Positions 6,346 to 52,898 are shown, counted from the stretch's first letter. The stretch: DNA of 64,000 nucleotides from a virus (IMGVR_UViG_3300031949_000027:2437-66436); one strand, 5' to 3'. Translations and numbers: made by a program. Notes: generated by a model not told the origin, from the letters alone.

Positions 6346-7605
6346 ATGACAAAAGAATTCAAGATTCTTGACTACTGTTTCAGCTTCAAGGGATTGAAAG
6401 CAGAAATACAAGCCTTCGATCAATCCTTCAATCTTCTTACTCATATCAAATCCTACAAGATGGAACGGAGGGGAATTATCGAAATAGAAGAAATAACAGA
6501 AAAGGTATTTTTCATAATGTTCGGACAGGAACAGCTAAGACAGCCGGAAGAATTTGAAGTAAAGAAAAATCAATTTCTTGCTAAGTTGAACGGCAAAACA
6601 TTAACCATTGCAGAACTACCGGGAATAAAGAAAGAGATCAAAGAAATATTTAACGCTCACGTTTCGCTTGATGATAAAACAGAAACTCCTGAACAGCACG
6701 AAAAGGAATTGGTAGAGCGTAACAAGTTACATGCAGAACACGAAGCAATAAGACAGGAACAAAGCAAACAGAGAGAAATCCAGAAAGAAGCACTCATAAA
6801 AGATTATCCATATCTGCAAACAGCATCAAAGGATATATCCGCACGCATACTCGCAACAAAGAACATTCGCATTGAACTTGAAAGAGCATATCCCGGACAC
6901 AAATTCTCAATTACTTCTGAAACATTTTCCGGCGGGGACTCAATAGACGTTAGATGGACGGACGGAGTAACAGAGAAGGAAATAAGAGACATCATTGGCA
7001 AATATCAAGAAGGACATTTTGACGGTATGACCGATAGCTATAACTATTCTCGAGATCCTTTCAGTGATATTTTCGGCGGTGCAAAATATGTTCATGGCAC
7101 AAGATCATACACAATGGAAAAGCAAAAAGAACTTGCTGAAAAGTTAGGCTATGAAATAACATTCAACGAGTATAAGAGTTTCAAAGTTACAAAGGAAGGA
7201 AGACAAGAAGATCAGGAGTTCAGCGACATACTAAGGTCAACCTCATTTTATACTAAGCCTGAACATCCAACCAACGGCGGAAGAAACATTGAAATCTCAT
7301 CAGCCAGTGGTATAAAAATCCAAGAGAATAAAGAGAAAGGCGGAATTGAAATAAACTTCTCAACTAAACCAACGGCGGAAGTAATAAGCAAATTAAAATC
7401 TAATGGTTTTAGGTGGAACGGAAGAACTAAGGTATGGTATAAGAAGATGTCAGAAAATGCGAGAATTTTCGCTGAAAGTCTAACCTACGGCGGAAAAACA
7501 ACAAATGATTCAATAGATGATCCAGAAGAAGAACTAATTACTCAAGAACAACAGACATTTGAAAGAGATTTACAGAGAGAGGCTATCAGCGAACAAGAAC
7601 AATAA
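6346..7605 (+). CDS. LPD29-like (large polyvalent protein-associated) domain protein
   Basis: KNIRIELERAYPGHKFSITSETFSGGDSIDVRWTDG...FDGMTDSYNY; C-terminal GIEINF..KP...LKSNGFRW...WYK domain. Confidence 0.7.
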   Translation: MTKEFKILDYCFSFKGLKAEIQAFDQSFNLLTHIKSYKMERRGIIEIEEITEKVFFIMFGQEQLRQPEEFEVKKNQFLAKLNGKTLTIAELPGIKKEIKEIFNAHVSLDDKTETPEQHEKELVERNKLHAEHEAIRQEQSKQREIQKEALIKDYPYLQTASKDISARILATKNIRIELERAYPGHKFSITSETFSGGDSIDVRWTDGVTEKEIRDIIGKYQEGHFDGMTDSYNYSRDPFSDIFGGAKYVHGTRSYTMEKQKELAEKLGYEITFNEYKSFKVTKEGRQEDQEFSDILRSTSFYTKPEHPTNGGRNIEISSASGIKIQENKEKGGIEINFSTKPTAEVISKLKSNGFRWNGRTKVWYKKMSENARIFAESLTYGGKTTNDSIDDPEEELITQEQQTFERDLQREAISEQEQ

Positions 7606-38960: not shown

Positions 38961-41900
38961 ATGGCTAAACAACCTTTTGAAGATTTAACAACGATTGCAG
39001 ATAAGATACAGAATAAATACAATCTCGAATGGAAGGGGAAAACCACAACTCAAACCGATGATCTCACCGAGATAGCAGATCGTTTAGACCAAAAATTAAA
39101 AAAACAAACCGAAGAATATGTTGGCATAACCGAGCCAGAATACGGCGAAGACTATGGAGTCCCGGAAGGATTTATTGACTATGATTCTCTTGGAGCGACA
39201 AGAGAGGAACGTCTCAAGAAAAGCAAAGAACAATTAGGAGTTAAAGAATCTATCGGTAGCCAATTTCCCGGACAGATCCCATTTGCAATAGAAACTCCTG
39301 AAACATCAACCGCTAATGTATTTGAATCACTATTACAGCCAGAAACAACCGTAGCGGAATCAACTCTTTCTACATTAAAACCAATTCAAAAAGAAGACGT
39401 TTTAACTATTGATGAAATTAAAAAACAGGAACGTCAGGAAGAAGGGACACGCAGGTTAATTAAATCTTTGCAGGATTATGAAAAAGGGACAAGTGTTTTC
39501 GGAACGCCAAACGCTATTCAGTTAGCGATTGAACACGAAAAGAAGATAAAAGAAAACCCATACTCAATGACAAGCGAAGAAGCTGAGCAATATTACGCAC
39601 AGAATCAGCATTTATTAAAAGACCTGACAAATACTTCGAGACGAATGTTAAAAGACATTCCAGTAATAGGGCAAATAACAAATACACTTCTTTATCATGT
39701 AAATCCAGAAGGATTCAGATATGCGGTAGCAGATGAATTAAGACAAAACAAATCGGCAGTAAATAAATATGCTGATTACGCAGCAGAATTTGCTGGGAGC
39801 CTTGCAGGGCTATTCTCGATAGGAGGAGGAATCCATCAAGGAGTAAATACAATCAAAGCGATTGAAACCCTTGCTAAAACAAATCCAAAGATAGCGAAAG
39901 CCATTTCAGCCTTTATTTCGGGGACGACTTATGGAGGATTGGGCGAAGCTGAAAAACTGGCATCAGGATTAGTTACGCCGGAAGGAGCGATAGCCAATAG
40001 TCTTGCATCAGGATTGGTATGGACAGCATTTACACAGGTTGGCACAAAAGATTGGTTAAAACTTCAAAAGAAGATCACACCAACAGTAGTCCCCGAAGGT
40101 CAGTCATTACAAGGATTTATTCCTAAATGGAAAACCGTATTAAACGGACAGAAGGTTAATGTAGGTTATGTTAAAGACAAAGGATTTTTATCAACACAAA
40201 TTGGTAATTGGTTAATAGATACAGGGATAGTAACGGCGGTAGGGACGGTATCTCATAAAGTTGCAAGAGCAGTTGATGATTCTGAAAGAAACGATACACC
40301 ACTGGTTAAGGAATTACAAAAACAATTTACAGAAATAGACCTTACACAGACTGGAATTGAATTTGCCATAAATGCAATTTTCACAGGCTCGATACCAAAA
40401 CAATATGGTAAAATGCCTCCACCGTCAATTAAAGAATCAAAAATATTTGAACAAAAATTACTTCCCGGTGAAAGGAAAGTTGATGAAACAGTAAGACAAT
40501 CAATGAAGCCGATTTCGCCATTCGCACCAACTGATATTAAAAAACCTTTTGTAACACCAACGACAGTTCCTCCGCCGGTTAAAACTCCCGAAGAAAAAAT
40601 TCAGGATATTGAATTAACACCCGAACCACCAGTAACAGAACTGCAAGCGGGAATGACGATAGAAGAAGAAACTCCTATCCTTGAAAACATTGTAAATAAA
40701 GTCGTAAATGGTGAAACTTTATCCGAGCAGGAAACACAGCTTCAAAGCAAATATCCGAACTACATTAAAACTAAAGTCAGAAGTATTCAGGAATCTCCGG
40801 AATTCAAACAGGCACAGTCCGAGTTACGTCAGCAGGAAAAACAGAAAGCCAAACTTGATACCGATAACTATGTGGAGCTGAGCAGACAATTCAAGAACGC
40901 ACAGCGAAAGAGAAACATTTACGATGTTGAAGTATTGAGAGAAGGTATTGCGGATATTACCTCTCCAGAAATAAAAACCAAAGCAGAAACATTATTAGTT
41001 GAGGCAGAAAAGCACAACCAAAATCTGACAGAGAGAAATAAATTTACCCTTGAGAATTTAAGCCGGAAGAAATACGGCACAATGGATCTCAGAAGCCTAA
41101 CCGAAGAACGGCAGCAAGGTTTGTTGAACGAATACAATGCAATGAAGAAACAAGGAATCACAGAGTTCAAGCAAATCCAAACTATTAAGCCAATAATTAA
41201 AAAAGGAGTAACAGATGCCATACAAGAGCGAAGCCCAGAGGAAATACTTCAACGTGAACCGGAAGAAACTGGAATCACAGGGGGTGAACGTGGAGGAATT
41301 CAACCAAGCATCAAAGGGGAAAAGCCTACCGAAAAAGGTAAGCAAGAAGAAATCACCGAAGCGGAAAAAGAAGGTTTCCTTACGAGACCGGGTAAGGAAG
41401 AAACTCAACCTGTAACGGAAATTCCCGCCGATACTAAAAGAAAAGAAAGCAAAGTATTTTATCGAGGCGGAGGCGAAGGCTCGATGCCGAGAGGGAAAAC
41501 AGCCCAAGACGTTATTAACTATGAAACCAAAGAATTAGGCAACAATATTCAGATTGAACCTAATATTAAATTAGGTGAAATACCATCAGAGAAATTAGTT
41601 TGGCTTACAGAAGAAGAAAAAGACGCTATCGAATATGGTGATGTTGACGAGATAGAACTTGAGGGAGAATATAGAATTATTGCAAGAGATCAGGACGGAG
41701 GGATATTAGTTGAGAAGAATTATAGGGAAATAGAACCCGAACCAACAGAAGCTCAGAAGGAAGCCGGGAATTACAAAAAAGGACACATTAAGAGAGACGA
41801 ACTTGATATATCAATAGAAAATCTGAAAGGTTCAACGCGGTCCGGCACAGACAAATCCGGGAAGAAATGGGAAATTGAATTACAGAATGATTACGGTTAT

Positions 41901-44900
41901 ATCAAAGGAACCTTGGGAAAAGATAAAGATCATCTTGACGTATTCTTATCAGAAGATTATCAGGAAGACTCACCAGTATTCATAGTCAACCAAACAACCC
42001 CTGAAGGTAAATTCGATGAACATAAAGTAATGCTCGGATTTACAAATATTGAAGATGCTGAACAATCTTATGTTTCTAATTACGAAGAAGGTAAAGCAAA
42101 CTATTCAGATGTAGTTGAAATGAGTATGGATGAGTTTAAGGAATGGAGTAAAGATCAGGAATTAATTAAGAAACCGGCTAAACAGAAAGAAAAATATCCT
42201 GATAATGCTTTTGCTGTCAAATTAAAATCAGGTAAAATTATTGCTGATGCTGATGCGAAAAATCATACTGAAATAGTTGAAAAGAATAATATCAATGAAG
42301 ATGATGTTATTGATATAGGTTTTATTAAAGACAACGAATTCTTAACCACAAAAGAATACACAGATAAAGTAAAAAGTGAGATTCAGCAACCCTCGAATAA
42401 TCTTGCTGCAATCAAGCGGATGATTGATGAGGGGAAATCATTAAAACAAATTTCGGATGCCCTAAATATTTCTTATGAAGAAGCAAGAAAAATAAGCGAT
42501 GAAATTTTATCGAAAAGAAAGCCGATAGAAGAAGTTGAGGAAACGAATATCGCCACAGATGCAAAAGGCTACCCAATAGTAACCGATAATTATGGCTATG
42601 ACCATACAATAAAACTTTGGGGAACACACATAGTCAGGACAAGTCCGGTTAAAGAAGAAGTAACAGAGAGCGGAATAAAGACAAGTAATTTTACGTTAGG
42701 CGGTTTGGGATGGGAATGGTGGGGATTCAAAAAGCAGGGAGATATTTGGGAAGGTTATGTAGAGGGATTTGAAAACGAATTTGGAAGTTTCTCTGAAAGC
42801 GAATTAAAAGAAAACGGAGTTAAGATTGTTACAGACCCAAAAGAATTACAAGAACTTAATCCTCCAATAGAGTGGAAGTGGAAACAGAAGAAAGCAACGG
42901 CAGAGAAAAAACCGACTAAGGCTCCGGAGCCACGACCAAAAATTGAAACAAAACCTGTAAAGCCAAAAGACACAGGAATTATTGACAAGGATATGACCGA
43001 CCTGATTAACGGTCTATTGGCAGATGATACAGCTCTCCAATTAAAGAAACCACAGCAGCCGGGATACAAAAAGGATATTGGACCGAAGGCTGTTACCGGG
43101 AAGAAACCAATTTTCAGAAGTGCAGCGATAAAATATGAAGGTAAAGTTTATGAGGGGATCAATCATTGGGACGCAACAGATAAAGCCGGGATAAGAATTG
43201 AAGATGAAGTAATACCATTTGAAGATTACGGATTTGTAACAAACGAAGGAAAATTTGTATCAACAATAGAAGCGGAAAAATTAGTAGGTGAGGTAGGCGT
43301 TTCTTCGGAAGATGCAATCACTAATAAATATCTTAAAAAACCTACCGCTAAAGAAATAGAAAAAGTTGAGAAAAAAGCAGGAAAATATTACAAACCTTTA
43401 TTTCAATTAAAACCCGGTGAAAGGATATCACCAGAGAAACAGTTAAAGGCAATCCAACTTGTAGAAAAATTCATTGGTAAAGAAGTTTACGAATTTAATA
43501 ATATGGTTTTCGCAGTAGAACAGGCATTTGGAAGAGAGACGATAGAGAAACTATTACCTGCACTAAAAGCAGGATATACGGCATATCTGAGTAATGTTTC
43601 TAATGAAGTGTATGACAAGATGGATAAACCCGATTATGTAAGGAAATTCACACTTGATAAGCCGGAGGGAAAAGTCCCAATAGAGGGCAGACCTGCACTT
43701 CATACAGAAGTTAGACAGCTTCTAATTGATGTGAATAAAATGACACCCGCACAGGCTGATTATAAGCTCAAGGGGACTGATATTAAAACTCTTGAGATAT
43801 GGAAGAAAGAACTTACAGAAAGAGCGGAAGCTAAAGGAGAGACAGGAATATCGAGACCTTTCATCCAGAGAGTAAGAGAAGAAATTCGAGCCGGAAATGT
43901 TTTAACCAAAACTCAACTTGAAAATATTGCTAAAGAATTTGATATTACAGATCCCAACGTAGCGAAGGAACAGGCTGAACTTGCTATTGTTGCCGAAGCA
44001 AGAAAGATTATCAGCGAAACTAAGGACGAGAAAGAGGCTTACGATAAGGTTGTCCAGATGTATCAGAATCAGCCTAATCTTACTCACAGGACAAATATAT
44101 CAGTAGAGAATCAGCAATATTCAACTCCGGCTCCTATATCTTATGTAGCAGGATTATATGTAGCAGACGGAGTTGGGAACGGTGATGTATTAGAACCATC
44201 AGCCGGAAACGGTATGCTCGTTATTGCATTTAACACAGGTCAAGTTTATGTAAATGAAATTGATGAAATAAGAAATGCTAATTTAAGACAGACCGGATAT
44301 GAGGGTATTGCGAATATTGATGCAGAGAAGCACGATAATATTTTTGGTAAAAAGTTTGATGGAATAATAACCAACCCTCCTTTTGGTAGTGCAGAGACAA
44401 AGAAGTTTAATGATTATAAGTTAGTAAAACTTGAACACATCATGGCAGCCAACGCACTCAAGCAAATGCAAAAAGACGGAAGGGCAGCGATAATAATTGG
44501 AGGACATAACAGATACGACAATAAAGGAAGATTACAGAACGACAGAACCTTCTTTAATTGGCTGAACCATCATTACAATGTAGATGCAGTATTAAATATT
44601 AGCGGTGATCTTTACAAGAAACAGGGGACACAATCCCCGATAAGGCTAATTTTAATCAACGGAAGAAAAGAAATACCACAAGGAGCAGCACCCTTATTTG
44701 ATGCACAGAAGGATGCAGAGATAAAAGATTTTGAAGATTTGTATAACAGAATAAAGGAGATCAGAAATGAAACTCTATTACGATCAGAACCTAATGCCGA
44801 GCGAGGACTTGGCGGAACTTCTGATGTGCGAAGTCCCGGCAGAAAAGATATTCAAAAACCCGGAAGAACTGAAACCATACCTGAGAAAGAGATTAGCAGA

Positions 44901-47900
44901 CCTGATACGGAAAAGCCCTCAGAACTTACAGAAGTTGGAGACACTGGTTTACGACCTTCTGGAACAGGAGAACCCATATCTGGAAAGCCCGGAAGAACTG
45001 GCAGACCTGATATTGGAAAGCCCACATTACCGGGAAGTGCTTCAGAACAAGGAAAAGGAAAAACCGGAAGTATTGACACAGGAAGAAGCGGAAAAGATAT
45101 TCAACGAGGCTTCAATAGAGAACCTGCTTCAGTTACTCCACGCACAATTTTAGAGGTAGATAAACCCTTCCTACCATACAAAGCAGAATCAGGAGGAGTT
45201 TCGCTTGATACAGTCATACCTCGAAATATGTCTTATGAAACATCTAAGCAACTTAAAATACTTACGGAAGACGTTGGCGGAGATATAGATCAATATGTAG
45301 TAGATAAACTTGAATACAAAGACAAGGAAGAACTTTACAGCCATCTTGGAGCGGAACAGATTGACGCAGTAGCTCTTGCCATTGTCGCAATAGAAAAGAA
45401 TCAAGGTATGATTATTGGCGATATGACCGGAGTAGGAAAAGGAAGAATAGCAGCATCGGTTATAAGGTATGCAGTTAATAATGGTTTCAAGCCAATTTTC
45501 TTTACAGAGAAAGCAGATTTGTTTTCTGATTTTTACAGAGACTTAGTAGATACCGGAAACAAAGAATTAAATCCATTCATAGTAAATAGCCCAAGTTCTA
45601 AGAATTCACCGGATATTGTTGATGAAGATGGCAACGTAATTCACAAAGCGTATGCAGGTGATAAAAAGAATGAAGCATTAAGGACCGGGGATATAGGAGG
45701 ACACGATTTTGTATTATGCACTTATTACCAAGTAAACAGTGAGAAACGAGGATTAAAGAGAAACTTTGTTTCAGATTTGGCAGAGGGAAATATTGTAGTA
45801 TTAGATGAAAGTCATAATGCAAGTGGAGACTCAAACACAGGAATATTTTTTAGTGGAATCGTCCAGAAAGCAAAGGGAGTAACATATCTCTCAGCTACAT
45901 TTGCAAAGAGACCGGACAATATGCCTATCTATGCAGTTAAGACAGCGATAAGCGAAGCCAATCTTACAGAATCTCAACTTGTAGAAGCGATTGAAAAAGG
46001 CGGGGTAGCACTACAAGAAATAGTTTCAACCGATATGGTAGAAGCCGGTCAGATGATTAGAAGGGAAAAAAGTTATGAAGGAATAAAAATTGGTTATAAG
46101 CCTTTGGTTGAAAAGAAATCCGAGCATACCATAATAGTAGATAATGTTACTGGAATAATCAGAGATATTATAGACTTCCAAAGTGAATACATTAAGCCTA
46201 TTGTTGATGGGATGGACACAGAAGCAGCACAAGATGGAGAAAGAGTTGCTATTGAAGGCGGAACAAATATGGCAGGAGTTGATAATACTCCATTTGCATC
46301 AAAAGTATTTAATGTTATTGACCAATTACTCTTTTCATTAAAAGCAGATTCCGCAGCCGATGAAGCAATACAAGCTATAAAGAAAGGACAAAAACCTGTT
46401 ATCGCAGTAAAGAATACTATGGAATCTTTTCTCGATTATCTTGGAGCAGAGGAAGGAGAAATTATAGAGAATACTGATTTCAGCACAATCCTTGAAAGAG
46501 GATTAAAAGGATTATTCAGAATTAGGAGAAGGGACGCAACCGGAGAAGGAGTCGCCGATGAATTATCAATGAATGATTTATCACCAGAAGGTAGAGCAGA
46601 ATACAAAAGAATTCTTGATAAGATAAATACAACATCAGTTGGAATAACAATTTCACCGATAGACCATATTATTTATAGATTAAATAAAGCAGGATATAAA
46701 GTTGGCGAGATAACAGGAAGAGATATAAGGCTTAAATTCAGAGACGATGGAAAAGCGATTATTGAAAACCGGACGGAAAAAGATAAAAAGAAAATCTTAC
46801 GAGAGTATAATAATTGGGGAAATCCCGGACAGCCAAGAGGAGTAGAAGGCGATAAAGATATTATATTGATAATAAACTCCTCCGGCTCCACAGGAAGGTC
46901 AGCACATTCATCTCCAAAGTTCAAAGATCAGCGTCAAAGAATGATGGTTACGGTTCAGATTGAACTTAACATCAATACAGAGATTCAGAAGCGAGGAAGG
47001 ATAAACAGAACAGGTCAAGTCAACAAACCAGAATATGTTACTTTATCAAGTGCTATCCCGGCAGAACAAAGATTATTGATGATGGCAAAGAAGAAATTAA
47101 AATCCCTTGATGCGAATGTATCATCAGATCAGAGTCAGGCAGGGACAACATTCGAGGCGAATGATTTTCTAAATAAATATGGCGATAGAGTAGTAATAGA
47201 ATATTTGAAAGAGAACCGGGAACTGAATGATATGCTTTTAGATCCGCTAAGAATGAACGCAATGAATGAAGAAGAACTCGAAAAATTTGTTACAAAAGAA
47301 GATGCAGCACATAAAGTAACAGGCAGAGTCGCAATACTGCCGACACAATTACAGGAAGAATTTTATAAAGAGATCGGACACAGATACGATGATTTTATTG
47401 AATATAAAGATTCGATTGGAGAAAACGACCTTGAAGTAAAAGTAATGCCTCTGGAAGCTCTTACAACGAATAGCAGGATGCTTGTAGCTGGTAAAGGAGG
47501 TGTAAGCCCATTCGGTAAAGATTCAATGTTAGAAACAGCAGAAATAAACGTATTGAAAAAACCACATCGAATGGAAAAGATCAATGAGTTTCTTGAAAAA
47601 TATCTTGAAGGCAAGGGGAAGGAAGAAAAGAAAAAAGAACTCATTGCAGATCAAAAAATATTTTGGAAAGGATGGGTTGAAACTCACGTTGACCGGAAAA
47701 AAGAAGTCATTGCTAAAGATTTGAAAATTAGTAAGGAAGATTTGAATAAACACCTTGCCGGAGGATTATCTGTTCAAGATATGATGAAAATATATCCTCA
47801 ATTAGTAGGTAAGGAAGTATTTATAGAAATGGAATTTTCTAAATATGCTGACCTCGTTAACAGATTTTTAGTTCAAGAGGATTTCATAATCAATAATATC

Positions 47901-50900
47901 TTTGGTAGATATGAAATAGGTAGCGTCTATAAATTACCATTAGTAAGAGATAATGTTTCTCCAACTTATTCAAATGCTATATTCTTAGGTTGGGATGTAA
48001 ATCCAAAGAGAAAAAACCCTTATGCTCCAAGTGCTATCAAATTAAAATTTGCAGTTGCAGATAGCAGACAGATAGTCCCAATTCCTGCATCACAAAGAGA
48101 TTGGTTAAATGACATAACGAGTGAAAGTTATAGTTTAAGTCAATGGCAGAAGAACGACATACTTTCTGATTGGGATAATGCTCTCCCGGATAACAGAAGG
48201 GAATTAAAAAATATTGTTACCGGGAATATACTTCAAGCGGTTGGCGACGTGAAGGGTGGGCAGTTAATTTCATACACCACAAAAGATGGAGGAATAAAAC
48301 GAGGAATACTGATTAAAGATAATAGAGCGATCAGCAGTGATGAAATTAGAGTCCCGATTAAGAGAGCAAGGAAATTCATACAGCAAATAGATATGGGAGA
48401 TTTCATCGAAAGTGTTGGCGGTGAAATAACTCTTATAAACGAGAGAGATAGAACATGGTCAATCGAAGTCCCGGCAAGTAAAGCAAAGGGAGGAAAGTAT
48501 TACCTTGATGAAGGAATAAAGAAACTCGTTAAGAATGGCAGGTTCGATAAATGGGGTAATACTATGAAAGCAGAACTGTCAAAAACAAACCTTGATGCTA
48601 TGATTGATTTGCTACAAGATGATTTTGGAATATCGGTTAGACTTTCTCAAGAACAAATAAAAAGAATCGGTGATGATAATTTACAACTAAGACCGGGAAA
48701 GATTTATAAAGATAGTTTTGGTAACGATGTTCCGGTTCAATATTCAAAAGCACACGAATTCACAGAAGATAATTATTATCTTAAAAAAGGGATTGTTGAT
48801 TTTGAAATTATACCTCCACAAAATGTATATTGGACGAGGGAACATATTAAATCTTACGATTATTCAGATGATTTTATTAAAACACTGCCTAAATTAAAAA
48901 AAGGAGATTTTGGTTATGAAGAAGGAAAAGAAAAATTCGCTGTCCAAATTGGAGGAGCCAAAACATTTGACTCTGAAACCGGCAGATGGAGAATCTCTAT
49001 CAGTAGCACAGCAACTCCGTCAGCATACTCCGAAGAAATCATCCACTACTTACAAGAAGTCATTGGAGAAGTTTCGCCAGAAATGGCACGGAGAATTAAC
49101 GAATGGGAATCAGACCTAAAAGAAGTTGCTAAAGCAGGAGGGATAAGCATACCGGAAGGGTATGAAACTTTTGCACAGGCGATGGTATTCACACATCTTG
49201 GATATGCTGAGGAGAATCCAGATGTAGCAGAACTGTTTGAAGTGCCAAAAGATATTCGGGATTGGTTCACTAACGAGATCCTCAACAAATCTATTTCCGG
49301 CAAAGCAAACATATCTGATTTATTAAAAGGAGAATCACAGAGAGAAGCGATCAGACTACCATCCGGTAAAATTGACAATTCATTACAAAACTTCCGGCAG
49401 AAAAGACAGGGAATGGCGATACCTTCTGAACTAATACCGATTGAAGATAAGCGGATTAAAAAGGGTCAGGAAGTATATGCTCAGTTAAAATCACAGTTCG
49501 GACCGTTAGCAGATGTTTATCCGCAGTGGCACAGGACTATGAGGCAGGAATATGGCAAAGAATTTGAAAGAGAATCGAGAAAAGTATGGAATGAAATGAA
49601 AGGGATTTTACATCAATTAAAACCTGCACCAAAAGAACTCATCGAGAAAGTTGAGTCCAAAGGATTGGTTATTGATAAAAATTCTATTGCTACCTATAAG
49701 ATTAAAGGCGAGCCAAAAGAGTATGTTGGAATAAGCACACCAGATAAAGCAGTTTCAAGAATATTCGAGCTAAGTAAACTTGATGAAGGATTAAAAACAT
49801 TCCCACCAACATCTCTACAATTAAAGAAGCCAAAGGACTTTAAGAAACCAATGAAGGACCGCGAAGAAAGATTCTTTGGAAAGAAAACAGAAACAGAGAT
49901 AGCGAGAGAACAGGGAAGGGAACCCGAGAGCGGAGAGGGCAACGTAGTTGATTTTGGAGCAGGATTAGGCAACGTCTTCACTGCAACAGCAGACAAGATA
50001 AACGAATTTGTCCGTAACAATAAACTTGAAAAAGAATTCGGCATCGAGAGCGACCCAAAGTTAAAGAAATTGTATAGAGAACTTCTTACAGCTCCCCAAT
50101 GGTTTTTCGATAAAGAACCTCAACTGAAAAGAGTTTGGGATATTATTGATAGGCATTTCGTAAGAAACGTAAACGAAGAAACAGCGATACTCCGGGAGGA
50201 TAAATGGAAAAACAGTAAGACTTGGAGAAAACTAACTGACATCGAACATAAAGAATTTTTATCAGCACTTGAAGAATACGAACAGACTCAATATGAATTG
50301 CAGAGAGACGGAGACGATCTTGAACTACTCGATTGGGCTGATTATGCAGATGAGTTTGCATTGACTCCAAAAGTAACAGAATTCTTATTCACTACATATA
50401 AGCCTACAATTGAGACAGCACTTGACATGGTGAAAGATGTTGACCGATACAAGATCATAAACGAGACCGAACACAATCCATATTTACAGAATTATTATGA
50501 AGCCAAAGGAACTAATGTAAAACAGCAACGATTAGATAATGAATTAGATAAAGCTAAAACAGAATTCTTTGATGATGATCCTAATTCGGAAGCCTTATAT
50601 GAAAATGAACTTGCAAATATGGTAAGGAACAAAAAACCAGTAGATGAAGTAAAGGCACTCGAATTAGTTTGGAAAAATAATCCTAACCTAAGAGAGACAT
50701 TAGCAGAAGTATTGATTGATAAGAAATATGAACGGATAGACGGCAAAGCATATTTCCCATCATCCAGACTTGATAAGAAATATTATCTAAGCGGATTTAA
50801 GAAAACGACATCAGAAGAAAAACTTCTTCAAGGAAAATTTGACGATAGATTTTTTACAACAAACGAGAATCTATCTACATTAGAAAAAATTAAAACTCAA

Positions 50901-52898
50901 CTTGAAACTCAGGGATATAATGTAAAGGTAGGAAAGTTCGCTGATGCACAGGAAGAAATATTACAAAATGCTGTTACTCAGGAAGACATACTCGATCTCG
51001 CATTATCAGCAGGAATAGAACAGGACAATCCGACACTTGAAAGACTTGTTAAAACAATTCAGGCAAAAGGTTTCAGCAGACATTTTATTCCAAAGAGATT
51101 CATTCCGGGATTTGGATATAACACCAAGAACTTTGAAGAAGCTATTTTCAAGTATATCGGTTCTGTTCCCTTCTATAAGAATAGAACGATTGGCAGTAAA
51201 GAACTCGGTAAAACAATGGGTCAGCTAAAACATCAGGGGGTATTGAAGCCCGGTTCAACAAACGACAGATACGTTCAGGATCTCAAAAATAAGATTGAGA
51301 ACAGAGACGTAAAATTATCACAAGCATTAAGAGCGGTAGCATCAACATACTACCTTGCATTATCACCCGCATATTTATCACAGCAGATAGTTCAGCCATT
51401 AAATACACTTCTGCCATTGCTGCCGATAACAGCAAAAGAACTCGGATTGAATAAGATAGAAGCAGAGAAAGCATTTGGAGAGGCATTATATTCATCACTT
51501 GGATATTGGGCTTGGAAAGTTTTTGATAAAATAAATAGAATGACAGGCAGACCTACTAATCAAACATTCGGATTAGATCCTTCATTCTTAACAATGATGC
51601 GATCACTTGAAAGACAGGGAGTAGGAAAGCCATTACGTTCTCTTGAACTCGTAGGACATCAGGTTGACCCGAAAAAGCATTATGCCGATGATGCAGTATC
51701 AAAAGCAGGAGGCTCAATATCTTGGATAGCTAAGATCGCAGGTATGCCCGGCATTATGGTTGAGGATTTTACAAGAACAATAGGTATAAGAGCATTATAT
51801 ACGTTAGGTAAGAAAGCAGGATTAAGAGGAGATAAACTTGAAGACTTTATTTCAACTAATATTGCAAAGAGTTACGGACCGGCTTCAGGAAGATTAGCGA
51901 AACCTCCGGGATATTACATAGCGGGAGAGGGAAGAACAAAACCAGTAAAGGAATTAGCACAGTCAGTAATTGAATCATGGCTAACATTTAAGAACTTTGC
52001 TTTTATGAATTACGGACAATGGGGAAAAACTTGGAGAGTATTGAAAGAAGATAATATGTTCAGACCGATGGCTTACAAGTTAGGATCTCAAATTGGGTTA
52101 GCAGGATTAAAGTATATGATGTGGACTTCATCAATATTAACACTGTTAAGCGGACTCTATGCTTTATTGAATGTTACTGAAGACCCGGAAGAACAATACG
52201 AAGAATTGTTTTTACATTTCAATAAACTGGTTCCGGGATTAGGTGATGCACTATATCGAGGAATAGCATCAATAACTTTCAAGGTTGATCTATCCGCTCT
52301 GTTTGCACAGACAGCACCAATAGAAGAACCATTTACAAAAGATGTAATTCAACTTATTGGCGGAGCTCCTGCATCAGCAGCAAAAGATATAATTGAGGGA
52401 AGACTACCAAGAGCAGCGAGAGGATTCCAGATAGCGGGAAATTGGGAAGAAGGCGGAGTGAAATTAGGAAGCAGGAAACTTATTCCACCAGAAGAAATAA
52501 CAGAAGAAGAAAAGACAAAAAGAAAACTTGGTTATAATCCTTTGAGAATGGCAGACGTATATCAGAAAGAAAATACCCGGCAATTCAAATCGAAGCAATA
52601 CACCGACATCATCAGGAATAAAGTAGAAGATGAAATTATTCCATTGATCGAAAAGGGCAGAGGAAAAGAAGCGAGACAAATTTTCGCTAAACTTTATGAA
52701 GATATGAAAGCTGATAGTGTTTTAACAGAAGGACAAATGAAATCAATAACCGGAGTCAACGGTTTTATTTCACAGGTAGTATTAACCAGACTTAAAGACA
52801 GCGAGAGAGAAATAATTAAGAACTGGAAGAACAACGGAAAGCAAAAAATTAACAGCCGGGACAGAAGCAGATCCGGCAACAGAGATCGAACCCGATAA
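38961..52898 (+). CDS. 4645-aa large polyvalent (DarB-like) protein
   Basis: InPase-like domain (EPTEAQKEAGNYKKGH...DYGYI...DHLDVF, about 41730-42150); DUF2958-like segment; N6-A methyltransferase (VLEPSAGNG, NPPFG 44373-87); strawberry-notch SF2 helicase (GDMTGVGKG 45417-43, DESH, QKRGRINRTGQ); EEIIH degenerate zincin motif. Confidence 0.88.
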   Translation: MAKQPFEDLTTIADKIQNKYNLEWKGKTTTQTDDLTEIADRLDQKLKKQTEEYVGITEPEYGEDYGVPEGFIDYDSLGATREERLKKSKEQLGVKESIGSQFPGQIPFAIETPETSTANVFESLLQPETTVAESTLSTLKPIQKEDVLTIDEIKKQERQEEGTRRLIKSLQDYEKGTSVFGTPNAIQLAIEHEKKIKENPYSMTSEEAEQYYAQNQHLLKDLTNTSRRMLKDIPVIGQITNTLLYHVNPEGFRYAVADELRQNKSAVNKYADYAAEFAGSLAGLFSIGGGIHQGVNTIKAIETLAKTNPKIAKAISAFISGTTYGGLGEAEKLASGLVTPEGAIANSLASGLVWTAFTQVGTKDWLKLQKKITPTVVPEGQSLQGFIPKWKTVLNGQKVNVGYVKDKGFLSTQIGNWLIDTGIVTAVGTVSHKVARAVDDSERNDTPLVKELQKQFTEIDLTQTGIEFAINAIFTGSIPKQYGKMPPPSIKESKIFEQKLLPGERKVDETVRQSMKPISPFAPTDIKKPFVTPTTVPPPVKTPEEKIQDIELTPEPPVTELQAGMTIEEETPILENIVNKVVNGETLSEQETQLQSKYPNYIKTKVRSIQESPEFKQAQSELRQQEKQKAKLDTDNYVELSRQFKNAQRKRNIYDVEVLREGIADITSPEIKTKAETLLVEAEKHNQNLTERNKFTLENLSRKKYGTMDLRSLTEERQQGLLNEYNAMKKQGITEFKQIQTIKPIIKKGVTDAIQERSPEEILQREPEETGITGGERGGIQPSIKGEKPTEKGKQEEITEAEKEGFLTRPGKEETQPVTEIPADTKRKESKVFYRGGGEGSMPRGKTAQDVINYETKELGNNIQIEPNIKLGEIPSEKLVWLTEEEKDAIEYGDVDEIELEGEYRIIARDQDGGILVEKNYREIEPEPTEAQKEAGNYKKGHIKRDELDISIENLKGSTRSGTDKSGKKWEIELQNDYGYIKGTLGKDKDHLDVFLSEDYQEDSPVFIVNQTTPEGKFDEHKVMLGFTNIEDAEQSYVSNYEEGKANYSDVVEMSMDEFKEWSKDQELIKKPAKQKEKYPDNAFAVKLKSGKIIADADAKNHTEIVEKNNINEDDVIDIGFIKDNEFLTTKEYTDKVKSEIQQPSNNLAAIKRMIDEGKSLKQISDALNISYEEARKISDEILSKRKPIEEVEETNIATDAKGYPIVTDNYGYDHTIKLWGTHIVRTSPVKEEVTESGIKTSNFTLGGLGWEWWGFKKQGDIWEGYVEGFENEFGSFSESELKENGVKIVTDPKELQELNPPIEWKWKQKKATAEKKPTKAPEPRPKIETKPVKPKDTGIIDKDMTDLINGLLADDTALQLKKPQQPGYKKDIGPKAVTGKKPIFRSAAIKYEGKVYEGINHWDATDKAGIRIEDEVIPFEDYGFVTNEGKFVSTIEAEKLVGEVGVSSEDAITNKYLKKPTAKEIEKVEKKAGKYYKPLFQLKPGERISPEKQLKAIQLVEKFIGKEVYEFNNMVFAVEQAFGRETIEKLLPALKAGYTAYLSNVSNEVYDKMDKPDYVRKFTLDKPEGKVPIEGRPALHTEVRQLLIDVNKMTPAQADYKLKGTDIKTLEIWKKELTERAEAKGETGISRPFIQRVREEIRAGNVLTKTQLENIAKEFDITDPNVAKEQAELAIVAEARKIISETKDEKEAYDKVVQMYQNQPNLTHRTNISVENQQYSTPAPISYVAGLYVADGVGNGDVLEPSAGNGMLVIAFNTGQVYVNEIDEIRNANLRQTGYEGIANIDAEKHDNIFGKKFDGIITNPPFGSAETKKFNDYKLVKLEHIMAANALKQMQKDGRAAIIIGGHNRYDNKGRLQNDRTFFNWLNHHYNVDAVLNISGDLYKKQGTQSPIRLILINGRKEIPQGAAPLFDAQKDAEIKDFEDLYNRIKEIRNETLLRSEPNAERGLGGTSDVRSPGRKDIQKPGRTETIPEKEISRPDTEKPSELTEVGDTGLRPSGTGEPISGKPGRTGRPDIGKPTLPGSASEQGKGKTGSIDTGRSGKDIQRGFNREPASVTPRTILEVDKPFLPYKAESGGVSLDTVIPRNMSYETSKQLKILTEDVGGDIDQYVVDKLEYKDKEELYSHLGAEQIDAVALAIVAIEKNQGMIIGDMTGVGKGRIAASVIRYAVNNGFKPIFFTEKADLFSDFYRDLVDTGNKELNPFIVNSPSSKNSPDIVDEDGNVIHKAYAGDKKNEALRTGDIGGHDFVLCTYYQVNSEKRGLKRNFVSDLAEGNIVVLDESHNASGDSNTGIFFSGIVQKAKGVTYLSATFAKRPDNMPIYAVKTAISEANLTESQLVEAIEKGGVALQEIVSTDMVEAGQMIRREKSYEGIKIGYKPLVEKKSEHTIIVDNVTGIIRDIIDFQSEYIKPIVDGMDTEAAQDGERVAIEGGTNMAGVDNTPFASKVFNVIDQLLFSLKADSAADEAIQAIKKGQKPVIAVKNTMESFLDYLGAEEGEIIENTDFSTILERGLKGLFRIRRRDATGEGVADELSMNDLSPEGRAEYKRILDKINTTSVGITISPIDHIIYRLNKAGYKVGEITGRDIRLKFRDDGKAIIENRTEKDKKKILREYNNWGNPGQPRGVEGDKDIILIINSSGSTGRSAHSSPKFKDQRQRMMVTVQIELNINTEIQKRGRINRTGQVNKPEYVTLSSAIPAEQRLLMMAKKKLKSLDANVSSDQSQAGTTFEANDFLNKYGDRVVIEYLKENRELNDMLLDPLRMNAMNEEELEKFVTKEDAAHKVTGRVAILPTQLQEEFYKEIGHRYDDFIEYKDSIGENDLEVKVMPLEALTTNSRMLVAGKGGVSPFGKDSMLETAEINVLKKPHRMEKINEFLEKYLEGKGKEEKKKELIADQKIFWKGWVETHVDRKKEVIAKDLKISKEDLNKHLAGGLSVQDMMKIYPQLVGKEVFIEMEFSKYADLVNRFLVQEDFIINNIFGRYEIGSVYKLPLVRDNVSPTYSNAIFLGWDVNPKRKNPYAPSAIKLKFAVADSRQIVPIPASQRDWLNDITSESYSLSQWQKNDILSDWDNALPDNRRELKNIVTGNILQAVGDVKGGQLISYTTKDGGIKRGILIKDNRAISSDEIRVPIKRARKFIQQIDMGDFIESVGGEITLINERDRTWSIEVPASKAKGGKYYLDEGIKKLVKNGRFDKWGNTMKAELSKTNLDAMIDLLQDDFGISVRLSQEQIKRIGDDNLQLRPGKIYKDSFGNDVPVQYSKAHEFTEDNYYLKKGIVDFEIIPPQNVYWTREHIKSYDYSDDFIKTLPKLKKGDFGYEEGKEKFAVQIGGAKTFDSETGRWRISISSTATPSAYSEEIIHYLQEVIGEVSPEMARRINEWESDLKEVAKAGGISIPEGYETFAQAMVFTHLGYAEENPDVAELFEVPKDIRDWFTNEILNKSISGKANISDLLKGESQREAIRLPSGKIDNSLQNFRQKRQGMAIPSELIPIEDKRIKKGQEVYAQLKSQFGPLADVYPQWHRTMRQEYGKEFERESRKVWNEMKGILHQLKPAPKELIEKVESKGLVIDKNSIATYKIKGEPKEYVGISTPDKAVSRIFELSKLDEGLKTFPPTSLQLKKPKDFKKPMKDREERFFGKKTETEIAREQGREPESGEGNVVDFGAGLGNVFTATADKINEFVRNNKLEKEFGIESDPKLKKLYRELLTAPQWFFDKEPQLKRVWDIIDRHFVRNVNEETAILREDKWKNSKTWRKLTDIEHKEFLSALEEYEQTQYELQRDGDDLELLDWADYADEFALTPKVTEFLFTTYKPTIETALDMVKDVDRYKIINETEHNPYLQNYYEAKGTNVKQQRLDNELDKAKTEFFDDDPNSEALYENELANMVRNKKPVDEVKALELVWKNNPNLRETLAEVLIDKKYERIDGKAYFPSSRLDKKYYLSGFKKTTSEEKLLQGKFDDRFFTTNENLSTLEKIKTQLETQGYNVKVGKFADAQEEILQNAVTQEDILDLALSAGIEQDNPTLERLVKTIQAKGFSRHFIPKRFIPGFGYNTKNFEEAIFKYIGSVPFYKNRTIGSKELGKTMGQLKHQGVLKPGSTNDRYVQDLKNKIENRDVKLSQALRAVASTYYLALSPAYLSQQIVQPLNTLLPLLPITAKELGLNKIEAEKAFGEALYSSLGYWAWKVFDKINRMTGRPTNQTFGLDPSFLTMMRSLERQGVGKPLRSLELVGHQVDPKKHYADDAVSKAGGSISWIAKIAGMPGIMVEDFTRTIGIRALYTLGKKAGLRGDKLEDFISTNIAKSYGPASGRLAKPPGYYIAGEGRTKPVKELAQSVIESWLTFKNFAFMNYGQWGKTWRVLKEDNMFRPMAYKLGSQIGLAGLKYMMWTSSILTLLSGLYALLNVTEDPEEQYEELFLHFNKLVPGLGDALYRGIASITFKVDLSALFAQTAPIEEPFTKDVIQLIGGAPASAAKDIIEGRLPRAARGFQIAGNWEEGGVKLGSRKLIPPEEITEEEKTKRKLGYNPLRMADVYQKENTRQFKSKQYTDIIRNKVEDEIIPLIEKGRGKEARQIFAKLYEDMKADSVLTEGQMKSITGVNGFISQVVLTRLKDSEREIIKNWKNNGKQKINSRDRSRSGNRDRTR
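41215..41415 (+). CDS. Nested gene 1 (+1 frame of the giant gene): 66-aa basic protein
   Basis: AAGGAG 41203-08, 6 nt before ATG; ends SLRDRVRKKLNL, matching two other phage proteins. Confidence 0.7.
   Translation: MPYKSEAQRKYFNVNRKKLESQGVNVEEFNQASKGKSLPKKVSKKKSPKRKKKVSLRDRVRKKLNL
44767..45153 (+). CDS. Nested gene 2 (+1 frame): 128-aa acidic helical protein
   Basis: AAGGAG 44754-59, 7 nt before ATG; amphipathic L/E pattern; the host frame here is a G/R/P/S-rich linker. Confidence 0.6.
   Translation: MKLYYDQNLMPSEDLAELLMCEVPAEKIFKNPEELKPYLRKRLADLIRKSPQNLQKLETLVYDLLEQENPYLESPEELADLILESPHYREVLQNKEKEKPEVLTQEEAEKIFNEASIENLLQLLHAQF

Follow-up and report, generated by a model that had tools for sequence, protein, structure and literature searches.

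A probable small gene nested in the +1 frame of the methylase-helicase linker of a giant phage protein

The stretch of DNA analyzed here, 64,000 nucleotides (nt) from a complete 66-kb virus record (IMGVR_UViG_3300031949_000027:2437-66436), is referred to below as the window; its GC content is 36.6% and all its genes lie on the + strand. It contains a giant gene, the product of which carries, in this order, an inorganic-pyrophosphatase-like domain (InPase), an adenine methyltransferase, a strawberry-notch-type helicase and a long C-terminal part (Table 1). Pfam matches fall at residues 930-1064 (InPase), 1770-1855 (MTS/UPF0020), 2130-2378 (AAA_34) and 2566-2826 (Helicase_C_4). A DNA methyltransferase, an SF2 ATPase and further domains are therefore joined on one phage open reading frame (ORF) of 4645 amino acids (aa), and the product is, as judged from its domains alone, a polyvalent protein with a methylase-helicase dyad of the DarB type. 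Between the two enzyme modules, a second ORF is nested in the +1 frame relative to the frame of the giant gene (the main frame), since (44767-38961) mod 3 = 1. An ORF scan showed that the overlap, 44767-45153, is stop-free in both frames. The stop-to-stop run around the nested ORF comprises 132 codons (44755-45153); no other +1 run in the giant gene exceeds 73 codons.

Table 1. Features of the giant gene in the window, and related loci used for comparison.
Feature	Locus	Coordinates	Strand	Description
Giant polyvalent gene	window	38961-52898	+	4645 aa, from ORF list and translation; hosts the nested gene
Methyltransferase module	window	44268-44765	+	Pfam core plus conserved C-terminal part; last motif DFEDLYNRI
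+1-frame stop TAA	window	44752-44754	+	4 codons 5' of the nested ATG; closes the nested frame there
Shine-Dalgarno sequence AAGGAG	window	44754-44759	+	7 nt 5' of the nested ATG; read as Lys-Glu in the main frame
Main-frame linker	window	44766-45155	+	Residues 1936-2065 of the giant protein; G/R/P/S/T-rich, basic, fast-evolving
Nested gene (predicted)	window	44767-45153	+	+1 frame, 128 aa; ATG at 44767, TAG at 45151-45153
Strawberry-notch-type helicase module	window	45156-47438	+	Pfam AAA_34 and Helicase_C_4; conserved part begins directly after the nested stop
Methylase fused to helicase	L005, L006			Linker of ≈40 residues, ordinary composition; no nested gene
Methylase and helicase as two separate genes	L007-L009, L011			No linker; no nested gene, no family member nearby
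GC-rich 887-bp contig	L084	1-887		Main frame open through methylase C-terminus, linker and helicase N-terminus; +1 family member P0007
Degraded locus	L087	7658-8237		Truncated methylase C-terminus; truncated +1 family member
'N-6 DNA Methylase', 1987 aa, DarB-like	L088 (Acinetobacter phage MD-2021a)			Acidic linker of ≈150 aa, Asp/Glu/Ser/Asn-rich; no nested ORF

The nested ORF fits closely between its neighbors, beginning 3 codons past the methyltransferase motif DFEDLYNRI and ending 1 codon ahead of the stretch for which tblastn finds alignments to the helicase modules of relatives. The C-terminal stretch of the methyltransferase can be aligned to relatives L003, L005, L006, L084 and L087, and the tblastn matches of relatives to 45156-46502 start at its residues 1-8. 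The predicted nested protein is acidic (pI 4.6), with 24 Leu and 22 Glu, and contains PEEL and LADLI twice each. Read in the main frame, these bases give 129 residues, with G20, R13, P14, S12 and T14, a single aromatic residue and a pI of 9.45. A first-pass annotation of the sequence had described a Leu/Glu-rich, 128-aa +1 ORF with these repeats and with AAGGAG 7 nt upstream, lying between the methyltransferase and the strawberry-notch ATPase under a G/R/P/S-rich main frame; every element of that description was confirmed.

Within the window, 1.4% of ATGs are preceded by AGGAG at a spacing of 5-11 nt, and a Shine-Dalgarno-like motif is present at ≈55% of gene starts. AAGGAG-N7-ATG is kept in two relatives (L003 and L004); a third (L010) has GTGAGG instead, and the nested starts lack a Shine-Dalgarno sequence in clades apparently made up of Bacteroides-type phages. 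Its absence there is expected, because Bacteroides-type hosts rarely use Shine-Dalgarno sequences. The nested start region is no more structured than its shuffled counterparts (folding z +0.64), and no sigma-70-like site was found upstream of the nested start that could serve as an internal promoter. The locus thus has the makings of an embedded gene with its own translation start, as predicted from the AAGGAG-N7-ATG arrangement and the unstructured start region. Since that region is unstructured and no promoter-like site lies upstream, the simplest reading is that the nested protein would be made by internal initiation at AAGGAG-N7-ATG on the giant-gene mRNA.

We considered the possibility that the ORF had arisen by chance from the composition of the linker, AAGGAG being merely a Lys-Glu pair. 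A stop in the +1 frame requires T at the second codon position of the main frame (an NTN codon), and the fraction of NTN codons is lower in the linker than anywhere else in the giant gene (0.15 vs. 0.26). ORFs on the minus strand likewise accumulate in such linkers. One of them, of 75 aa (window 44852-45079), runs across the nested gene and is probably a side effect of the stop-poor composition. In a null model, the main-frame protein was kept, its codons were resampled, and run lengths in the +1 frame were counted. The probability of a run of at least 132 codons was ≈0.002 for the window linker and 0.006-0.2 for the relatives, with several of the latter at 0.03-0.2. The test is weak in the relatives because of the low NTN-codon content of the linker. 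The expectation that the ORF would exceed a codon-shuffled null in length was thus borne out in the window and not in several of its relatives. ORF length alone is suggestive and cannot decide the matter; homology, the codon-position pattern and the fold prediction carry the case.

Viral contigs were scanned with the helicase N-terminus, which gave 80 loci, 74 of them with an uninterrupted giant ORF. In each of the 74 giant genes, 134-183 consecutive +1 codons are stop-free, and this run terminates only a few codons away from where the helicase begins; 65 distinct nested peptides are encoded in all. Between the window and L003, the differences at main-frame positions 1/2/3 number 81/56/275 in the flanks (900 nt) and 43/25/22 in the overlap (chi-square p 1e-12), and the same shift is seen in four further pairs from clades A, C/D and E (p 1e-8 to 1e-22). 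Main position 1 corresponds to nested position 3, and main position 3 to nested position 2; therefore, the wobble site has moved to the nested frame. In all five pairs, from three clades, the differences in the overlap are most frequent at nested position 3 and least frequent at nested position 2. With 40 codons considered at a time, a sliding scan of 9 kb located the shift at 44688-45167 (against L003) and 44709-45236 (against L004).

Conservation of the two proteins gives the same picture. Within clades, identities in the nested frame are 0.72, 0.64, 0.64-0.77 and 0.92, vs. 0.57, 0.47, 0.38-0.61 and 0.77 in the main frame, and main-frame identity is 0.47-0.57 in the overlap vs. 0.71-0.88 in the flanks. 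Had the homologs conserved only the main frame, the first-pass proposal of a gene would have had to be abandoned; the opposite was seen, the nested frame being the conserved one. Purifying selection acts on the nested frame. Neither the shift of the wobble site nor the higher conservation of the nested protein is explained by a chance ORF.

Two other regions of the giant gene were flagged by the sliding scan. In window 41160-41735 (L003 and L004), which contains a nested ORF at 41203-41415, differences at main position 1 are at least as numerous as those at position 3. The other, window 48849-49148, has a 73-codon +1 run with a +1 ORF at 48910-49119 (69 aa) and is probably a variable part of the giant protein. 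A third nested gene at 48898-49119 was rejected, since the main frame is better conserved there than the alternative (56/51% vs. 52/42% against L003/L004).

A word-based search of 5.8 billion proteins returned one homolog of the nested protein, P0003, with 47% identity. It is encoded on a 556-bp contig (L001) in which the nested frame is the only open one, the frame matching the giant gene being closed. P0003 and the nested protein align at their Met-Lys-[Leu/Ile]-Tyr-Tyr start and at the stop, and many of the differences between them are synonymous in the nested frame. When 1.8 billion representative sequences were searched exhaustively with a profile, 13 matched at E ≤ 1e-3 (E 2e-67 to 6e-4), over positions ≈1-130. 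Ten of these are small proteins (110-143 aa), and the remaining three, of 344-487 aa, carry one or two copies of the domain at the C-terminus. The family members are collinear from end to end, and the ATG of the nested ORF aligns with the N-terminus of the free-standing homologs. Shared motifs include an N-terminal [IL][YF]Y..P..M, LFM.[EQ]VP, L.PYL..R, a central helix and a C-terminal LL..L, all of which the nested protein matches over its full length. Conservation is concentrated in hydrophobic or structural residues, and the alignment contains no catalytic pattern. A hidden Markov model (HMM) of the family, run in six frames, matched L001, L083, L084 and L087; of these, L083 is a second truly free-standing copy.

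The three longer proteins, P0013 (487 aa, two copies), P0006 and P0008, are bacterial and have long hydrophobic N-terminal parts that look membrane-like by eye only. These fusions hint at a binding or sensing module outside phages.

AlphaFold, run with an alignment of 14 sequences, predicted two short strands and seven helices for the nested protein alone, with high confidence (mean pLDDT 90, pTM 0.84). Foldseek found nothing at E ≤ 0.001 in PDB and BFVD, and among 48,161 chains compared with VIA-align the best match was to death-fold bundles (Z 3.2); neither result makes the fold new. The NCBIfam model for the Xre_ParS antitoxin gave a sub-threshold match (E 0.053, 13.6 bits vs. a cut-off of 90). 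There was no usable match in the ESM Atlas, no match among GenBank phages and plasmids in DNA or protein searches, and nothing in a pattern scan of viral contigs with P0001 or P0017. A genome-contig scan with P0012 gave one marginal match, which was rejected because it was not confirmed by the family HMM; 401 genomes of its phylum were without a match. On the strength of the alignments and the predicted structure, the nested protein is best described as a member of a real, unnamed domain family of ≈130 aa that is predicted to be folded. A chance origin leaves the free-standing and membrane-fused homologs as well as the confidently predicted fold without explanation, and we regard its probability as close to negligible.

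The composition of the linker can be traced to the nested gene. Of the 22 nested Glu codons, 14 are read as Gly and the other 8 as Arg when the main frame is followed, and the nested Leu codons mostly yield Thr or Pro; the linker is rich in G, R, P and S because the nested codons, read one base earlier, spell it that way. When the nested protein was held fixed and its codons were resampled from the usage of the gene, the main frame was open in 0 of 4000 trials for each of the nine sequences tested. None of the 51 nested codons that precede a codon starting with AA, AG or GA ends in T, and the share of codons with a final T is 9% in the nested gene vs. 28% in the giant gene. The main frame thus stays open because of a bias in nested codon choice at the risky wobble positions. 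The rate of change at nested position 3 is about that of the wobble sites in the flanks (0.34/0.46, 0.47/0.47 and 0.18/0.17), and the amino acid sequence of the linker is therefore nearly free. Both frames are under selection, the nested one for its protein and the main one for continuity: within the overlap, the main frame is selected for openness only. It is kept stop-free, so that the methyltransferase and helicase modules remain joined in the 4645-aa polypeptide. The first-pass suggestion that this linker is the shifted-frame shadow of a real gene is supported by the protein family, the shift in codon positions, the predicted fold and the codon-determined composition.

Programmed frameshifting could also give access to the nested frame, either as an in-line domain, with a +1 shift in and another back out, or as a truncated product consisting of the methylase plus the domain. 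Phages use frameshifting in structural genes, the two frames here are open and adjacent, and a truncated product would stop at 45153, exactly before the helicase. However, in every clade there is a +1-frame stop 1-14 codons 5' of the conserved nested ATG, so that the nested frame is not open to an upstream slippery site. Nor does it lack a start of its own, as a frameshift product would, since a Shine-Dalgarno sequence is present and the domain begins at the corresponding ATG in the free-standing homologs. Furthermore, the main frame is actively kept open across the segment, which would be pointless if ribosomes left it. We consider a frameshift product very improbable.

The related loci provided natural controls. 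The methylase-helicase pairs of L005-L009 and L011 lack the nested gene and have either a short linker or none (Table 1), and the nested arrangement is not universal among methylase-helicase proteins. In the GC-rich contig L084, the public gene call had picked the nested +1 ORF and broken the main frame into pieces; thus, some of the 'small proteins' in databases are embedded copies. The degraded locus L087 shares its 32-kb contig with genes of cellular appearance, including DnaB-like ones, and looks like the remnant of a decayed giant gene. The linker of the Acinetobacter phage protein contains no +1 or +2 ORF above 59 codons, which shows that a long linker need not be the shadow of a nested gene. 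Given this DarB-like protein, the extension of the idea to the linkers of polyvalent proteins in general is upheld only in part.

An unannotated +1 ORF of 119 aa was also observed in a cultured gut phage, Bacteroides phage BS-TP4 (PQ571277.1; L086), at 6603-6962, directly before the helicase module of gp3, a 5391-aa 'hypothetical protein'. Three minus-strand ORFs (142-165 aa) lie over the same stop-poor linker. Of 930 Chinese gut viromes, 31% contained sequence of this cultured phage (PMC12694917).

Family members are found where there is no methylase-helicase pair, and the linkers of dyads that lack the nested gene are short. For these reasons, the small gene probably came first, and the linker frame would have been overprinted on it once methylase and helicase had merged into a single reading frame.

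What the nested protein does can be approached from its position. The giant gene is preceded by genes with weak tail-fiber-like matches and followed by an exonuclease-like gene. In several distant clades, the nested gene keeps its exact place between the two enzyme modules, and a binding partner is for this reason the most likely role. The nested product may be a non-enzymatic partner of the giant virion or counter-defense protein, made from the same message, and could help in assembly or packaging, or else regulate or inhibit the methylase and helicase. We hold this view tentatively, with a confidence just short of even. Alternatively, the nested gene could be real and its product independent of the giant protein, an accessory or counter-defense factor (such as an acidic protein that inhibits host defense) accommodated in a tolerant linker for want of genome space. 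The acidic, helical nature of the protein and its lack of a catalytic motif are compatible with such a factor. So are the family members located away from methylases and helicases (L001, L083), those fused to bacterial membrane-like proteins, and the assignment of the host protein to a counter-defense polyvalent class (PMC5512222). However, the position has survived across clades that are only ≈40% identical in the helicase, as well as in a lineage of high GC content and in a degraded copy; this is more than hitch-hiking predicts, and no similarity in fold to known DNA mimics (of the Ocr/ArdA type) or inhibitors was found for the acidic nested protein. An independent factor is unlikely, if still deserving of serious attention; roles other than partner and counter-defense factor make up the remainder.

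Several points weigh against the reading of the nested ORF as a gene for a partner of the giant protein. The case for translation of the nested frame comes entirely from evolutionary comparison, and the proposed order of events, with the small gene first, is read solely from the distribution of the family. The nested protein had no significant match in Pfam, PHROGs, NCBIfam, PADLOC or the PDB sequences. ORF length was non-significant in several relatives, with P up to 0.2. The nested ORFs of clade C/D did not match the family significantly by hhalign (E 0.26), those of clades C/D and E gave only weak, collinear HMM matches, and AlphaFold was confident for clade C/D in one of five models. The BS-TP4 +1 ORF had no detectable relative, by the family HMM included, and is a candidate only. 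For clades C/D and E, motif order, the weak HMM match and a similar order of structural elements nevertheless suggest that their nested ORFs are related to the family.

Taking these points into account, we consider it highly probable that 44767-45153 codes for two proteins, a nested one maintained by selection and a passive linker; expression, history and the role as a partner are what we infer around this core. Standard gene calling forbids a gene within a gene, which makes the nested family invisible in every related phage genome. The polarity of the overlap appears to be reversed, the small embedded gene being apparently old and constrained and the stretch of the big protein passive. Disorder or low complexity in giant multi-domain phage proteins is thus not to be read as linker biology alone, and the overlap offers a concrete, testable route by which some linkers may originate, together with a new candidate player adjoining a counter-defense methylase-helicase pair. 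In a wider form, long low-complexity linkers would arise by fusion of enzyme genes through a small intervening gene that goes on working, each linker being its out-of-frame image; the hidden product, translated from the shared message, would be a dedicated partner that regulates or assembles the methylase and helicase, and such linker-shadow genes would form a class. This is a speculative proposal that we think rather less than probable; if true, gene callers would be blind to a whole class of genes carried by common Bacteroides phages of the human gut.

In the literature texts searched, we found no account of a nested gene in the linker that separates methylase and helicase in polyvalent proteins. 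The host protein resembles the P1 DarB-type dyad (Iyer et al. 2017, PMC5512222), in which an adenine methyltransferase is followed by a strawberry-notch/SWI2-SNF2-type ATPase in a multi-domain phage protein; the words linker, overlapping and disordered are absent from the text of that paper. As an arrangement, a complete +1-frame gene with its own start inside a larger gene on the same strand is known from Rz1 within Rz, the spanin genes of phage lambda, and from B, K and E within A/C and D of phiX174. It is also comparable to the polymerase spacer of hepatitis B virus over preS/S, where two enzyme domains are separated by a spacer that is poorly conserved and shares its bases with a gene in a different frame. 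In the nested pairs of Rz1/Rz and phiX174, both products are needed. Unlike in lambda and phiX174 (the overlapping genes of the latter are cited in PMC8227390), the host gene is here a 14-kb polyvalent gene in a 66-kb double-stranded DNA phage, the nested product is a predicted folded domain of 128 aa with free-standing relatives, and what the host frame encodes across the overlap is no functional domain but a passive linker. For hepatitis B virus, a model has been put forward in which two originally separate genes with a short gene between them underwent fusion (PMC8227390). That virus is an animal pararetrovirus with a very compact genome, in contrast to the tailed phage described here, in which the flanks are a methylase and a helicase and the nested family is unrelated. 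De novo frames shifted by +2 tend to encode basic, disordered sequence with few hydrophobic residues (Rancurel 2009; Willis and Masel 2018; reviewed in PMC8227390). Relative to the nested gene, the linker is in the +2 frame, and it is likewise basic (pI 9.45), hydrophobic-poor and of low complexity. However, in the usual case of overprinting a new small gene arises within an old large one, whereas here the embedded gene appears to be old and the linker new.

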